Notes under the pieces: generated by a model
What the model was told of the DNA's origin: nothing
Database searches by the model: none
Seen by the model: only the letters and a program-made list of their open reading frames with translations
Position numbers and translations under genes: made by a program
DNA from: Euryarchaeota archaeon UBA23
GTDB taxonomy: Archaea; Thermoplasmatota; Poseidoniia; Poseidoniales; Thalassarchaeaceae
Assembly: GCA_002498725.1 (NCBI GenBank)
Contig: DAIJ01000008.1
Location: 5,598 to 69,597 of the forward strand
DNA length: 64,000 nt
Direction: 5' to 3'
Shown: positions 44,290-52,100 of the stretch, piece after piece
How the letters are laid out: every line of letters starts with the position of its first letter
Position numbering within the stretch: the first letter of the stretch is position 1

Positions 44290-45137
44290 TTCAATATTTT
44301 CTGCACTGGAAAATAACATCCCCAGACCTCTATTTCCGGTCCACAGTGCCTCATTTAGGGAAAAGTTTATGTGCCTCTGACCCTCAGACCTAAGATGCCG
44401 CTTCGTGGGAGTGGTGTGGCAGGCACTTAGGTGCAGGCCGCGGGCCACAGAACCGAACCCCAAACACGGGGTGGTAGAACCGGGCTTCGAAAGAAGATCG
44501 GGGATAATCAAACTCGTCTTGTGGACGAGGGAGATGCGGTTGAACTGTAATGGAGCAAACGGACGCAAGAAAGTGAGCAAAGATACAGGGGAAGCTGGGG
44601 AAAACGAACCGAACTGTCTAGGCAGGGAAAACACAACCAAACCAGAAAACCAAACCGCGGGTGCATGAGCGAAGGATAAAAGAACCAGAGATGGGAAAAT
44701 ATCTGAGGCTTATCTACGGGAAACAAAGGCAGAAAAAAAACTGGACGCAAGAAAGGGGAAAAGAAACCTGAGGGAAACGTAGCGGGAACAAGAGCGCGGA
44801 GACGCGTGGAGGACCGGCATCAGTTCCACTAAACAAACTGGTGAGAGCCAGGGAGAGAAGTGGAAACGCAGAAACAGGGAGTGATCTCTGAAGAAGCGGA
44901 AACGACAAAAGAGCTCTTAGGAGTTCAAGAGTCATCTACCCGGAGAAATAATTGTCTTAGGGCAAGGAAAGAACCGGACCCTGCGGAGTCAGCAGGGGGC
45001 GATGCTCCCCCATGTGCAGAACCCCCTGCTGCTCCCACCTTGTACCAAAGTACGGCTGAGCCCTATTACATCTCGTTATCAATCATTGCGGAGTCTTTCT
45101 GCAGAATCTATTGGTTTTCAAACAGTAGCCTTTACTG
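44290..45137 (+). other. 850-bp convergent intergenic island with extreme purine/T-depleted strand bias and elevated GC; candidate structured ncRNA or protein-binding motif array
   Basis: No credible ORF: both strands give only low-complexity peptides. The + strand is heavily purine-rich and T-depleted. GGAAAC / GGGAAA(A)C occur at least 8 times and AGAACC(G) at least 5 times. The 3' end carries a perfect 10-bp stem (44990-45031) overlapping an alternative 5-bp G5/C5 hairpin (44995-45011). Confidence 0.3.
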
Positions 45138-46745
45138 TCACTGTCCTCGATTTGGTCCAATCATTTCTGATGGCCTTACCCATTGGTCGAATTGTTCGTT
45201 AGTAAGTATTCCCAGAGATATTGATGATTCACGTAAAGTCAATTGGTTGTCATGAGCGTGTTTGGCTATTTTAGCCGCAGAATCGTAACCGATGTGATTG
45301 TTTAGTGCTGTAACAAGCATCAGGCTATTCTCAAGGTGATTATGGATTACATCTTCGTTCGCTTTGAGATCTTTAACACATCTTTCTGTGAAGGAAATAC
45401 AAGTATCTGCAAGAAGCCTAGTACTATGTAGAAGATTGTATATCATCATTGGCTTGAATACATTCAACTCAAAATTCCCTTGACTTCCCCCTATTGTAAT
45501 AGACATGTGGTTCCCCATAACTTGGCAGCAAACCATTGTCATAGCCTCTGATTGAGTTGGGTTTACTTTTCCGGGCATTATGGATGACCCGGGTTCATTT
45601 GCAGGTAGGCTTAATTCTCCGAAACCACACCGTGGACCCGATCCCATCCATCGTATATCATTGGAGATTTTCATTAGACTTGTAGCTAATGTATTGAGAG
45701 AACCCGACATTGCAACTATAGCATCATGTGCAGCCAATTGGGCGAATTTATTCTCTGCTGAAACAAAGGCAATTCCTGTTTTACTTGATATCCTAGTTGC
45801 TACTTTGTCTGGAAATTCTTCATGTGTATTGAGACCGGTGCCAACTGCAGTCCCCCCCAAGGCCAATTCAAGAAGGTCGTTCCAAGAGTTTTCAATTCGG
45901 TGTATGTCTGCTTCCAACATGGAAGCATAGCCACCGAATTCTTGGCCTAGAGTAAGGGGTACTGCATCCATTAGATGTGTTCGTCCAATCTTAACTATGT
46001 CGCTAAATTCTCTGGATTTTTCTGCTAAATCGCCTTGAAGTCGGCGTACTGCAGGGAGTAGACGATGATGAATTTCTTCTGCTGCTGCAATGTGCATTGC
46101 TGTTGGGAATGTGTCATTACTGGATTGGCCTCTATTAACATGATCATTTGGATGAACTGGTGACTTGCTTCCTAATTCTCCACCGGCCATTTCAATTGCT
46201 CTGTTGGCGATTACTTCATTCGCGTTCATATTTGTCTGAGTCCCTGAACCCGTCTGCCATACACGAAGAGGGAAGTGGTCATCTAAAGAACCAGATATCA
46301 CTTCATCGCAGGCTGATGATATCAATGCTCCAACTTGTGGATCTAATTGATTGAGTTCTACATTTGTTTCAGCGGCTGCTTGCTTTAGTATTCCAAACGC
46401 TCGAATTAGAGATTTTGGCATGATGTCGTCGCCTATATCAAAATTGGTTAGAGACCTAGCTGTTTGACAGCCATAGTATCTACTAGATGGAACTTTTAGT
46501 TCCCCCATGGTGTCTTTTTCTATTCTAAATGTGCCTTCTTCCGATTTAGCGACTCTCTGATTAATTTGGTGTTTTTCCTGGTGTAATGATGGTGAAGATT
46601 CAAGGCTATTTTGGATCATGCCTGCTATTGTTGCACTACGTCCCTTGTCTTTTCCCTTACCTACTCTACGATCGAGTTTTCTAGCTAATTCTTCTGGAAT
46701 GCTTATGCTGATTATGCGGCGGTCTCCTGACCTATGCTTAGCCAT
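45138..46745 (-). CDS. fumC: Fumarate hydratase class II (FumC) with in-frame N-terminal ribbon-helix-helix (CopG/NikR-like) extension
   Basis: Core is near-colinear with E. coli FumC ([29 protein letters not shown]-terminal [13 protein letters not shown]...WVRPSEMIG). The first ~45 aa ([39 protein letters not shown]) match the RHH beta-strand-helixA-helixB pattern. No stop lies between the RHH region and the FumC core. Confidence 0.8.
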
Positions 46746-46857
46746 AATTTAACTCCGTTAATTAGTTATTAATAAATTTTGAGTTTTTTAGAGCAGTACT
46801 ACGTTAATAACAAAATTTATTATAAACTTCTAGTTAGAAATTAAGAAATTATTAATT
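46746..46857 (-). promoter_or_regulatory. Extremely AT-rich 112-bp spacer (fumC promoter / ppiB terminator region)
   Basis: Almost entirely A/T (TTATTAATAAATTTTGAGTTTTTTAG..., AAATTAAGAAATTATTAATTT). Contains TATA-like and T-run elements. Lies between the ppiB stop and the fumC start on the same strand. Confidence 0.35.
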
Positions 46858-47349
46858 TCAGACTTTCAGCCGCTCTACTTTGATTATTTTTTGGGGTTCG
46901 TAGGGACGATCTCCTGGTTTTGTATCACAATTCTCGATCTTGTATACGTTCTCCATACCTTCGATTACTTCTCCAAATATAGCATGATTTCCATTAAGCC
47001 AAGGAGTAGGTACTGTTGTTAGGAAAAATTGCGATCCGCCAGTGTTTGGACCCGCATTTGCCATTGAAAAAAGACCAGGGCGATCGTGTTGCTTGGCCAA
47101 GGCGGATTGTTCGCAAGGAATTTTCCAACCAGGACCACCAGTTCCAGCTCTTCCATCGAACGGATCTTTTGATCTTGGACATCCGCCTTGAATCATGAAA
47201 TTCTTGATTACTCTGTGGAAGTGAAGGCCATTATAGAATCCTTCATCTACCAATTTTAGAAAATTACCAGTGGTTTCTGGGCAGTCTTCAGTATATAATG
47301 CAATATCAATTTCTCCGGCGCTCGTTGTCATCCTAACTATGGTCGGCAT
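46858..47349 (-). CDS. ppiB: Peptidyl-prolyl cis-trans isomerase, cyclophilin type
   Basis: HRVIKNFMIQGG, SMANAGPNTGGSQFF, HAIFGEV. Confidence 0.9.
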   Translation of the reverse strand: MPTIVRMTTSAGEIDIALYTEDCPETTGNFLKLVDEGFYNGLHFHRVIKNFMIQGGCPRSKDPFDGRAGTGGPGWKIPCEQSALAKQHDRPGLFSMANAGPNTGGSQFFLTTVPTPWLNGNHAIFGEVIEGMENVYKIENCDTKPGDRPYEPQKIIKVERLKV

Positions 47350-48393: not shown

Positions 48394-48978
48394 TCACTCT
48401 TCAGTAACATCTGAACGGAGTAAGAGTGGAATGAGATTCACTCCGGCTTCCTTGAAGGCTTCCAAACCACCTTCTTCTCGATCGAGAATAGTGATACAGG
48501 CTACCACTTCGCAGCCAATCTCTGAGAGTCTTGTTGCTGCTTTCAAAGCGGAACCACCCGTAGTCGTCACGTCCTCAAGAAGAACGATACGATCTCCGGT
48601 GTTTAGAGTGGATCCCTCTATTCCAGGAGGGTTGCCGGTCTTTCTACCACCTCTGCCCTTCGCTTCTTTTCGAACTATGAATCCACGAAGATTCGATGCT
48701 TTTGATGCCTTTGCGATTGCAATTCCTGTCAGAGGCACTGCACCTAATTCGAGTCCCCCGACGGCATCTACACCCCCTAGGTTGTCAATTGAGGAGTGGA
48801 TTAGTACTCCAATTAAGTGAGCTGCTTCTGGATCCATCATTACTGGTTTCATATCAAAAAAGTGAGGGCTTTGACGTCCGCTAGCGAGTGTGAATAAATC
48901 GTCTGGTGAGTGCAAATATGCCAATTCACGGACCTTTTTGATTAGGCCCTGACGTGCGTTTTCGACTGTAGTCGACAT
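48394..48978 (-). CDS. pyrE: Orotate phosphoribosyltransferase
   Basis: PRPP-binding motif RIVLLEDVTTTGGS and GFIVRKEAKGRG. About 190 aa. Confidence 0.85.
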   Translation of the reverse strand: MSTTVENARQGLIKKVRELAYLHSPDDLFTLASGRQSPHFFDMKPVMMDPEAAHLIGVLIHSSIDNLGGVDAVGGLELGAVPLTGIAIAKASKASNLRGFIVRKEAKGRGGRKTGNPPGIEGSTLNTGDRIVLLEDVTTTGGSALKAATRLSEIGCEVVACITILDREEGGLEAFKEAGVNLIPLLLRSDVTEE

Positions 48979-49103
48979 GGTTCTCTTTCATCCGGAGAGG
49001 CTATTGTGAGAATAAGGTTCGCACTATTTATCTAATTCGAGTGCAAACGAGGAAGGTTAGCATCAATGTTCTTGGACGGTCTTCTACGGTCATTGAATGT
49101 TAG

Positions 49104-52100
49104 GTGACGGGGGTAGTGGCGATGACAGGAAATGATTCACTTCAAATCGTAATCGATGAAGTGCGTTTGAACTCTGAAATGGAGGCTTATTCCAATTGGT
49201 TAGACGAACGTACTGAAGAGGCTTACAAAGTCGCGGCAAAGGCCAAACAAAAGCGTGTTGATTTTTCAGAAAAGGTAGAGATTCCAAGAGCGGCAGATCT
49301 TGCTAGTAGAACTGAAAAGTTACTTGAAGAATATCTGAGACCTGAACCTGATCAAGATCCAATCCAAATTCAAGATGATTTAAGGAAATTACTTTCCAAA
49401 GAAGATAGGGAAACTGCATCCATTCGGATTGCGGTTGAAACCGCAAAAAAGATGCATGCGCTTACTTCTGATGTAAGACGCTCAATTGACACAGGACTAA
49501 GGGTTGGTTTAGCAGTTCTAACAGAAGCGGTTTTAGTCGCGCCACTTGAAGGAATTGGAGATGTTAAGATACTAAATAACGAAGATGGTACTGAATTTCT
49601 TTCTATAGAATTCTGTGGGCCAATTAGAGCCGCGGGGGGGACTGCTCAAGCACTGGGTGTAATGATTGGAGACATGGTCCGAAGAGAATTAGGACTCAAT
49701 CGCTACATACCTACGACTCCCGAAGTTGAAAGGGTAAAGGAAGAATTTGGGCTATACAGAGTTGGATTACAATACAAACCAACTCCTGAAGAAATAGAGA
49801 TTATTGTGCGATCTTGCCCTGTGATGATTAATGGAGAGCCTACTGAGCAACAAGAATGTTCCAGCTACAAAGAAGTCCGTAATATCGACAGTTCTCGTGT
49901 CCGTGGAGGGGTGATGTTAGTTATCGGAGAAGGTCTATGTCTGAAGGCTCCAAAGATCCAAAAACATACAGAAAGGTTAGATATACAAGGTTGGGAATTC
50001 ATAGGAAGGTTTGCCTCAAAGGGTAAATCAGAAGATGATCAAATAAAGAAATTCAAGGCTAGAACTATTCCTAAAAATGAACGCTTTTTGGATGATGTTA
50101 TTGCTGGGAGGCCTGTTTTTTCGGGGCCTAATTCTGCTGGTGGTTTTAGATTAAGATATGGACGAAGTAGGGCGTCTGGACTGGCGGCTGCAGGCATTAA
50201 TCCGGTATCAATGGAGGCTATGGGATCATTTCTATCCGTAGGAACTCAAATGAAAGTTGAAAGACCTGGTAAAGCCGCCGCCGTTACCCCAGCAAAAGAC
50301 ATAGATGGACCTACAGTTTTACTTGATGATGGAGCGTATATTCGCATTGATACCATCGAAGAGTGGCGAGAAATTGCCGATAGAGTAGATACAATATGGG
50401 ATTCGGGAGAAATGCTAGTTGGATTTGGAGAATTCCTTGAAAATAACAAAAACTTAGTTCCATCTGCGTACAATAGAGACTGGTTTGCCTCCGAATTAGC
50501 AGAAATTTTGGACCAACCGAGTAAGGTTGATCGTTTGGCTGAAATCCTGCAACTATCTCGTGAAGATATGCCTCCGGGTTTACCATTCAATGGGGCAATC
50601 TCTCGAGGAGGGGAGGAAAAATTCAAGAGAATGATTAGGAGGAGAGACTGGGATCGGTATCTGCGAAATATTAGCCTAAATTGGTTACAGGTTAGCGCCC
50701 TTTCTACTGAATTTGGCACTGCGATACCCCCTCCTTGGAATCCATGGTGGTCTGACTTATCATTGACATTAGTCAATGATTTGGTTAGGGCTTTGTTAAA
50801 CGGCTATATAGAAGCAGAAAAACTAGTAATTCCAAATGTAGTTGGTGATTGGAACGTTACTTCTAAGGAGAATATGAACCTAAGCCAAGAAAATTATTCT
50901 GAACGACATGGGAAGGTTAAATCTAGTTTGATGATTCTAGGAATTAGCCACATACACGTGGGCGATGATATTGTGATCCCTAGTCATTGGGAGGCTTTAC
51001 TTGAAGGATTGGGGTTGAAAGAAAATGAAGGAAAGATATTACAACACTCTGATGCTGGAATGCATGTCAAAGATAGAGAAGGAAAAATACTGAATGCACA
51101 AATGATTGTTGATGCTGAAAATAAAAGATTGGAGGATCTTCAACAAAGGAAGAGGGTTGAAAGGGTTCGGGCTGAAACTGCTGCAAGACAAAGAGGTCTC
51201 GGTATTTCAGAAACCGAGGCAGAAGGGTTTGCTGCTGCTGCCTTAATTGAAGACCCAGGAATTCCAAATCTAAGTGAATTAGAAGCCGCAAGAAGAATTC
51301 TGGATGATCATGAAGTTGAAGGATGCTTGTGGCTGGTGCGAAGAATGTCAAATTTGCGTTGGGAAGATTCTGTTCCTTGCAGAGTTGGTTCGAGGATGGG
51401 GCGGCCGGAGAAGGCTTCGCGTCGCGAAATGAAACCAATGGTGCACTCCCTATTCCCAATTGGTGACTATGGTGGACCGCAGAGATTACTCAGTCATGCG
51501 GCTAATCAAGGACAGATAAGGGTAGAAATGGGCCCGAGGATTTGCCAAGATTGTGGGAGAGAGTCTCCCTTCCTAAAATGCCACCATAGACCAGATCCTG
51601 GAAATCCTAAAGAGTGTGGAGGGATTACCAAACCAAGAGAAATTAGAGGAAATCGGAAGCCAAGGAGATTGGGGCAGCGTACAAGTGTGTCTTTAGCAAG
51701 AATACTTGAAGTAAAACGCCGATCTCTAGGGATTGATGTTTTGCCTAAGAAAATCAAAGCTGTAAAGGGATTAATGTCATATCACCAAACTCCAGAACCT
51801 ATTGAAAAAGGGATTCTAAGAGCCCACCATAACGTATCTGTTTTCAGAGATGGAACTGCGCGTTATGACATGATAGATGTTCCAGTAACTCATTTTCGAC
51901 CATGTGAGATTAATTCATCTGTTGAGTCACTGGTGAATCTTGGATATACGCATGATGTAGATGGGCAGGCTCTAGTTAACGAGCAACAAATTGTTGAGTT
52001 GTTTCCTCAGGATTTTATCCCCTCAAGTAAAGCCATTGAACATCTCAGTTCGACGTGTGATTTCGTCGATCAAGAACTAATCAAAATATATGGAGGTGAG

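Follow-up and report, generated by a model that had tools for sequence, protein, structure and literature searches.

A predicted ribbon-helix-helix domain is fused to the class II fumarase of Poseidoniales archaea

Introduction

When a metabolic enzyme carries a fused DNA-binding domain, flux can be coupled directly to transcription, and the textbook case is PutA of Escherichia coli and Salmonella, in which a ribbon-helix-helix (RHH) domain and an enzyme share one polypeptide and the protein represses its own operon. The present analysis concerns a class II fumarase (FumC) with an N-terminal domain that is predicted to adopt the RHH fold; its gene lies in a 64,000-nt stretch of contig DAIJ01000008.1 from the Poseidoniales archaeon UBA23, referred to below as the window. 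PutA differs from the RHH-fumarase in being a bacterial proline dehydrogenase/pyrroline-5-carboxylate dehydrogenase that is switched by reduction of flavin adenine dinucleotide (FAD) and by membrane binding, for which the fumarase fusion shows no apparent equivalent. No sequence relationship between the two was found beyond the fold, and for autoregulation the archaeal locus offers a candidate site only. NikR has a similar geometry, a tetramer with two RHH dimers, but carries a C-terminal ACT-like metal sensor and no enzyme, whereas in the RHH-fumarase the two parts are joined by a disordered linker about 23 residues long. NikR family models score far under their cutoffs on the fumarase (13 bits vs 83-119).

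The remaining relatives each share one half of the fusion. Canonical FumC, CitG and human fumarate hydratase (FH) have the same core; their N-terminal extensions, if any, are mitochondrial presequences or tags, and their reported DNA-related roles operate via recruitment by other proteins. CopG, Arc, MazE/ParD/TacA, archaeal aCcr1 and viral SvtR share the fold, the size and the pattern of strand, helix A, G-x-S and helix B with the N-terminal domain. These stand-alone regulators and antitoxins are encoded by separate genes, however, whereas the fused RHH is not followed by a toxin gene and has a longer loop between helices A and B.

An enzyme with a DNA-binding domain is thus a known design, and the RHH-fumarase is not a new principle. 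To our knowledge, however, no fumarase has been described with a DNA-binding domain, nor, as far as could be found, has any other enzyme of the tricarboxylic acid (TCA) cycle. Full-text literature searches that combined RHH or CopG with fumarase, Marine Group II/Poseidoniales and trigger enzymes returned no description of the fusion, and a survey of archaeal gene fusion and fission mentions fumarase only as class I subunits (PMC11237513). In public annotation the protein is a plain 'class II fumarate hydratase' and its precomputed Pfam domains do not include an RHH.

Domain architecture of the fumarase

The gene is a single open reading frame (ORF), and its coordinates and those of its parts are given in Table 1. 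The initial annotation had proposed a physical, in-frame fusion of an RHH domain to fumarase C, and this is borne out by uninterrupted orthologous ORFs, selection on the N-terminal domain (N-domain) and the predicted RHH fold. The fusion is almost certainly real and translated as one protein. The extension upstream of the core is present and free of stop codons, as had been noted; its length was put at 68 codons and is corrected here to about 70-72 residues, made up of a 48-aa domain and a 22-24-aa linker.

The resemblance of the core to E. coli FumC, also noted at the outset, is confirmed by a phmmer search of the PDB, in which residues 72-532 align with residues 3-463 of the E. coli enzyme (1FUO; E 2e-171) and human FH is matched at E 2e-197. 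The NCBIfam equivalog TIGR00979 (fumC_II) gives 756.9 bits, above its trusted cutoff of 664.75, with residues 73-530 spanning model positions 1-458. The active-site regions are complete (residues 165-174; SSNDTFPT, 208-215; GRTHLMDA with the catalytic His, 254-261; and 386-396, the GSSxMPxKxNP 'SS loop'), and the motifs are unchanged in 56 orthologues. As judged from these matches, the core is an orthodox class II fumarase with intact catalytic motifs. Class II fumarases are obligate homotetramers, and the high similarity to solved tetrameric fumarases suggests that the archaeal protein would likewise form a homotetramer with fumarase activity. Residues 1-63 are not covered by any solved fumarase matched in the PDB.

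Several predictions assign residues 1-48 to the RHH fold. Of 32 orthologous N-domains, 31 are matched by Pfam RHH_1 at E<=1 (best E 2.6e-6), and the window copy is borderline, with 16.0-20.5 bits against a gathering cutoff of 20.5, the score depending on the fragment submitted. AlphaFold2 modelling of a 52-residue alignment yielded a short N-terminal strand, a helix at 18-28 and a second helix at 36-49, with a mean predicted local distance difference test (pLDDT) score of 69, so that the predicted domain has the strand, helix A, helix B topology within about 45 residues. The predicted fold matches RHH proteins almost exclusively; a Foldseek search gave similar matches, mostly to RHH proteins, at E-values that are non-significant, as expected for so small a query. 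Matches to HicB_lk_antitox were weak (13-14 bits vs 27), and the N-domain profile gave only chance matches against PDB sequences. RHH domains fold only as intertwined dimers; in the full-length AlphaFold2 monomer the N-domain and linker have a pLDDT of 41-56 and do not dock on the core, which fits a fold that needs a dimer partner.

Conservation among the orthologues follows what an RHH would require of its DNA-reading side. The N-terminal arm and the outward-facing alternate strand residues H4, R5, G7, R10, I11 and S15 are invariant, the intervening hydrophobic strand positions vary among I, V, L and M, and the domain is basic, with a net charge of +7. The earlier description of a 'textbook' RHH is consistent with the RHH_1 matches across the family and with the predicted fold; the one departure is the Gly/Lys-rich loop between helices A and B (GKGKDKG), which exceeds that of CopG-type proteins by about 6 residues. 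The linker is variable in sequence and constant in length (22-24 aa) across orthologues, and is rich in Ala, Ser, Glu, Pro, Arg and Thr.

Two other identities for the extension were considered and rejected. An RHH antitoxin of a type II toxin-antitoxin pair is disfavoured, given that no locus has a separating stop and that the downstream partner is a housekeeping enzyme. A signal peptide (Tat or other) or a presequence of the mitochondrial type was suggested by an 'RR' followed by IISISI, but the hydrophobic stretch is only 6 residues long and the fold matches RHH.

Distribution, selection and start codon

A search of 5.8 billion clustered proteins was performed and the best 120 matches were examined. 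These are 72-93% identical to the window protein and 529-545 aa long, with 99-100% query coverage, and those that carry names come from metagenome-assembled genomes (MAGs) of Thalassarchaeaceae, Thalassarchaeum or Thermoplasmatota. The exception in length and coverage is P0053 (491 aa), for which the gene caller began at an internal Met. When one genome per GTDB species was scanned with the N-domain profile, the domain proved to be encoded in 256 stretches, the best 80 of which underlie the counts out of 80 below. All 80 are archaeal MAGs; 45 are named Poseidoniales, Thalassarchaeaceae (Marine Group IIb, MGIIb), Poseidonia (MGIIa) or Marine Group II, and the remainder carry phylum-level names only.

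An intact fused ORF of 530-538 aa is present in 72 of these 80, in both Poseidoniales families. The other eight comprise contig-end cuts, breaks inside the enzyme core, one over-long ORF (592 aa) and one locus in which the start motif was not found; no stop between N-domain and core occurs in any of the 80. The orthologous fumC loci thus keep the same extension in one uninterrupted ORF without a separate RHH gene, as the initial annotation had proposed to check, and its alternative of a read-through antitoxin-like gene, a missed stop or a frameshift is not borne out, as related genomes never separate the parts. Over 400 random species pairs, in which synonymous sites are saturated (pS 0.82), the ratio of non-synonymous to synonymous differences per site (pN/pS) was 0.16 for codons 1-48 (pN 0.134), 0.175 for the first 60 core codons and 0.73 for the linker. 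The RHH domain is therefore under purifying selection as strong as that on the enzyme core, and the pattern of pN/pS and length is that of two folded domains joined by a flexible tether. The fusion is old and fixed across the order Poseidoniales.

It is extremely unlikely that the fusion is an artefact, in which a small RHH gene and fumC were merged by sequencing or assembly error, or in which the start was over-extended and translation really begins at Met43 or Met80. One public gene call, that of P0053, does begin at an internal Met. However, the same open frame recurs in hundreds of independent assemblies, and the N-domain protein is conserved while its synonymous sites are saturated. The start ATG is invariant across loci, and the conserved MAKHR start has its nearest in-frame stop only 1-7 codons upstream in most of them. 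A promoter-like block is positioned about 30 nt before this first ATG, and the poorly conserved linker DNA holds no conserved signal; initiation at an internal Met, raised as a possibility earlier, is thus unsupported. A GGAG 8 nt upstream of the window ATG is probably not a Shine-Dalgarno sequence, as it is unconserved in other loci.

An exhaustive search of 1.84 billion representatives with the N-domain profile returned only fused-fumarase fragments, two weakly matching stand-alone RHH proteins and a spurious match of 860 aa. It says little on distribution, as RHH-less cluster representatives apparently stand in for the full-length fused proteins.

RHH variants and RHH-less fumarases

Two further kinds of RHH are fused to FumC. 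Type 1b is a divergent subfamily of Thalassarchaeaceae (MGKHNVGGSRIVSVSIPEDVAQELDRW..GRSAWIVQAIR..), and the rarer type 2 (MPTKGRPRTHDARIVSVSFPSELLEKMEEIESIAENRSQWIVEAVNKRL) has a canonical short loop and a shorter linker. Type 2 is exemplified by loci L202 and L203 (gene at 5001-) and by proteins P0207, P0209 and P0284-P0288, on long-read contigs with cyclophilin-asparaginase synteny. Profile-profile comparison places all RHH types in one family (98.7%), and a single ancient fusion is therefore the simplest history.

Fumarases without an RHH sit inside this group. P0228, P0221 and P0225 are 93-97% identical to the type-2 fused P0207 over the first 150 core residues, closer to it than two type-2 proteins are to each other, and are nested inside the fused clade. 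At locus L204 (5001-6203), which has Poseidoniales-like synteny, the RHH-less fumarase is 95% identical to P0207, and its two close RHH-less relatives are 93% and 95% identical, so that the RHH was lost secondarily here. The region upstream of P0228, P0221 and P0225 has been rearranged. A second RHH-less locus, L207 (4001-4663), likewise with Poseidoniales-like synteny, has a topoisomerase IB gene directly upstream, and the AT-rich block described below is absent upstream of both L204 and L207. The existence of RHH-less relatives indicates that the RHH is dispensable for catalysis, which fits an accessory regulatory role.

Possible stand-alone relatives of the N-domain were limited to P0162 and P0163, both with weak E-values. 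P0163 (L081 4001-4177) is a small RHH protein of 58 aa, matched by the N-domain profile at E 1.8e-4, on a virus-like contig with a terminase gene.

A conserved block upstream of fumC

Alignment of the 130 nt upstream of the ATG in the 80 loci revealed an AT-rich block with the consensus TTTATTAATAA[C/G]TAATTAA, which ends 10-13 nt before the ATG in about 90% of the loci. At this distance the block is found in 76 of the 80 loci at <=6 mismatches, and about 69 have it in full. It is nearly invariant, most positions holding 1.2-1.7 bits, whereas the flanks hold <0.8 bit and are wholly different between MGIIa and MGIIb. In the window it is unique even at 3 mismatches, and the 36 related loci that have the exact block carry one copy each, always at fumC. 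Among five gene families compared it is the most conserved upstream 19-mer, with a mean identity of 0.93 vs 0.73-0.88, although some of the others overlap coding sequence. The promoter of a neighbouring RNA gene (see below) conserves only about 8 nt in the same genomes, around TTTAT, and the extra 11 nt at fumC therefore look like more than a core promoter.

The archaeal TATA box is centred about 26-27 nt upstream of the transcription start. The first 8 nt of the block, TTTATTAA, lie 29-31 nt before the ATG, a spacing that by this rule puts the transcription start at the ATG or a few nt from it. The fumC mRNA is therefore probably leaderless, with the RHH start codon as its 5'-terminal AUG. 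The remaining 11 nt fall in the TATA-to-start interval, the binding place of many archaeal repressors, and an imperfect dyad, TTAATAA-S-TAATTAA, is centred on the single position of the block that alternates between C and G. The 3' part of the block (TAA-S-TAATTAA) is a candidate operator.

Other features of the window

The neighbours of fumC in the window encode a cyclophilin, a membrane protein and a tRNA-binding protein. Between fumC and an upstream beta-propeller-like gene lies an RNA-like element that is purine-rich and G+C-rich (A 34%, G 32%, C 21%, T 13%). It is present in 56 of the 80 loci, where it invariably follows fumC on the strand opposite to that gene, and in most of these the identity is 68-83% over most of about 600-800 nt; the most conserved 12-mers of these loci lie within it. 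RNAalifold predicted 92 pairs, among which 55 show compensatory double changes, and two invariant long-range helices close the molecule. On this structure 95.1% of cells pair, vs 82.8% in shuffles. The covariation score is 0.378; shuffles give 0.166, none of the 500 attaining the observed value, and slid partners give 0.05-0.07. The plus strand is the one favoured by G-U pairs. Modules of the form AAC(Y)GGACG(M)AAGGAAGGGGAA are repeated in a copy number that varies by species, each with a GNRA-type loop between what may be tandem G.A pairs. No Rfam family matches the element at gathering score or at E<=1, and the element probably represents a large structured RNA of Thalassarchaeaceae that has not been described before.

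Table 1. Coordinates of the fumarase gene, its parts and adjacent elements in the window
Feature	Position	Strand	Remarks
RHH-linker-FumC gene, complete	45138..46745	-	Single ORF, ATG start, 535 codons + stop
N-terminal RHH domain (predicted)	46602..46745	-	Codons 1-48, net charge +7
Flexible linker	46530..46601	-	Codons 49-72; from pN/pS 0.73, length, composition and pLDDT of about 48-52
Class II fumarate hydratase core	45138..46529	-	Codons 73-535; from TIGR00979, Pfam Lyase_1 and FumaraseC_C, PDB matches and motifs
fumC/cyclophilin intergenic region	46746..46857	-	AT-rich block inside; cyclophilin gene at 46858-47349
19-nt AT-rich block, TTTATTAATAACTAATTAA	46758..46776	-	TATA position and TATA-to-start interval
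5' part of block, TTTATTAA	46769-46776	-	Where an archaeal TATA box would be expected
RNA-like element, structured core	44397-45038	+	Conserved, about 640 nt, ORF-free, convergent to fumC
Promoter-like AAAGTTTATG	44362-44371	+	Conserved, about 27 nt before the structured core

A second conserved upstream 19-mer, with the consensus AGTGCGAACCTTCATCCGA, lies at about 49014-49024 (-) of the window and has a mean identity of 0.88 in 42 loci. It is situated in the divergent intergenic region 48979-49121, about 51 nt before a gene for a 194-aa protein (48394-48978, -). A minus-strand frame (1 to about 7570) stays open for at least 2521 codons and continues beyond the first nucleotide of the window; it presumably encodes a giant surface protein, a kind common in these archaea. 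Neither tRNA genes nor Rfam families at gathering score were found in the 64 kb.

Discussion

The fumarase of Poseidoniales probably has a second role in gene regulation, for which its own gene is the most likely target. Dimerisation and DNA binding by the RHH, the choice of operator, and any repression or control by metabolites are what we infer from the sequences and models above. Given that fumarases are homotetrameric and RHH domains dimeric, the tetramer would present two RHH dimers, as the NikR tetramer does. The beta-ribbons of these dimers may enter the major groove of the AT-rich block at the protein's own promoter, where an occupied block would hinder TBP, TFB or RNA polymerase and produce negative autoregulation. 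The autoregulation could be tuned by substrate or by assembly state, and the protein would be a PutA-like 'trigger enzyme'. A bifunctional enzyme of the PutA/NikR kind that represses its own promoter is the reading tentatively preferred here, as a real possibility that falls a little short of being probable. A broader version, in which the protein is a metabolite-responsive transcription factor that relays the state of substrate or flux to DNA through two tethered RHH dimers, at its own promoter and perhaps at more, is more doubtful.

A number of observations weigh against self-repression through the block. The AlphaFold2 confidence for the N-domain is modest, both alone (pLDDT 69) and in the full-length monomer (41-56). 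In 7 of the 80 type-1 loci the RHH is unchanged and the 3' half of the block is replaced; upstream of type-1b loci only TTTAATAAC is found, and type-2 loci have TTTATTAAT followed by a different AT-rich sequence. The presumed DNA-reading strand residues are nevertheless identical in all RHH types, and as a test of covariation between RHH type and operator this is ambiguous. The element universal to RHH-bearing loci is only TATA-like (TTTAWTAA-like) and could be a mere promoter, and the block as a whole could be an unusually constrained core promoter. Dyad symmetry in an all-A/T sequence is statistically weak. A metagenome scan with the exact 19-mer was uninformative on a regulon, as 18 of 120 matches were fumC promoters and the rest chance AT-rich sequence from unrelated organisms (e.g. 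gut bacteria).

The loci that retain the RHH but have a missing or altered 3' half of the block imply a function that does not depend on that sequence alone, and so lend some weight to a protein that acts mainly elsewhere, as a transcription factor for other genes (e.g. of the TCA cycle or central carbon metabolism) or as a general DNA- or chromatin-associated fumarase, with the block as promoter only. The RHH fold and basic charge would suit such a protein, and class II fumarases are known to moonlight in the DNA-damage response; a DNA-bound fumarase may supply fumarate or malate locally in DNA repair, as has been proposed for the yeast, human and Bacillus subtilis enzymes. Against this, RHH domains are usually sequence-specific repressors at their own promoter, no second copy of the block was found in the window or across some 600 kb from related loci, and nothing ties the protein to repair genes, its neighbours being those listed above. 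Action mainly at other targets is therefore considered unlikely.

The DNA-side evidence is circumstantial, and the RHH fold might instead act without binding DNA, as a module for dimerisation or assembly by which tetramers are cross-linked or stabilised or a partner protein is recruited. RHH domains are obligate dimers, the flexible linker of fixed length would permit contacts within or between tetramers, and the AlphaFold2 monomer shows the N-domain undocked from the core. However, the +7 charge, the invariant basic arm and the polar/Ile outward face of the strand suit a DNA-reading ribbon rather than an assembly module, a fumarase tetramer needs no such domain for its stability, and some relatives lack the RHH. 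A purely structural role thus seems improbable, and repression of its own promoter by the RHH-fumarase remains the preferred interpretation.

The fusion escapes automatic annotation, yet it is directly testable, given a candidate site of 19 bp and a protein expected to be easy to express. A natural fumarase with a predicted DNA-binding domain offers a reference point for the debate on fumarase moonlighting at DNA. If the proposed function is correct, this would be, as far as the literature searches show, the first TCA-cycle enzyme with a built-in sequence-specific DNA-binding domain, and a link between fumarase and DNA that is independent of the eukaryotic DNA-damage pathway. Poseidoniales rank with the most abundant surface-ocean archaea and are uncultured, and the fusion gives a handle on gene regulation in organisms that are beyond cultivation.

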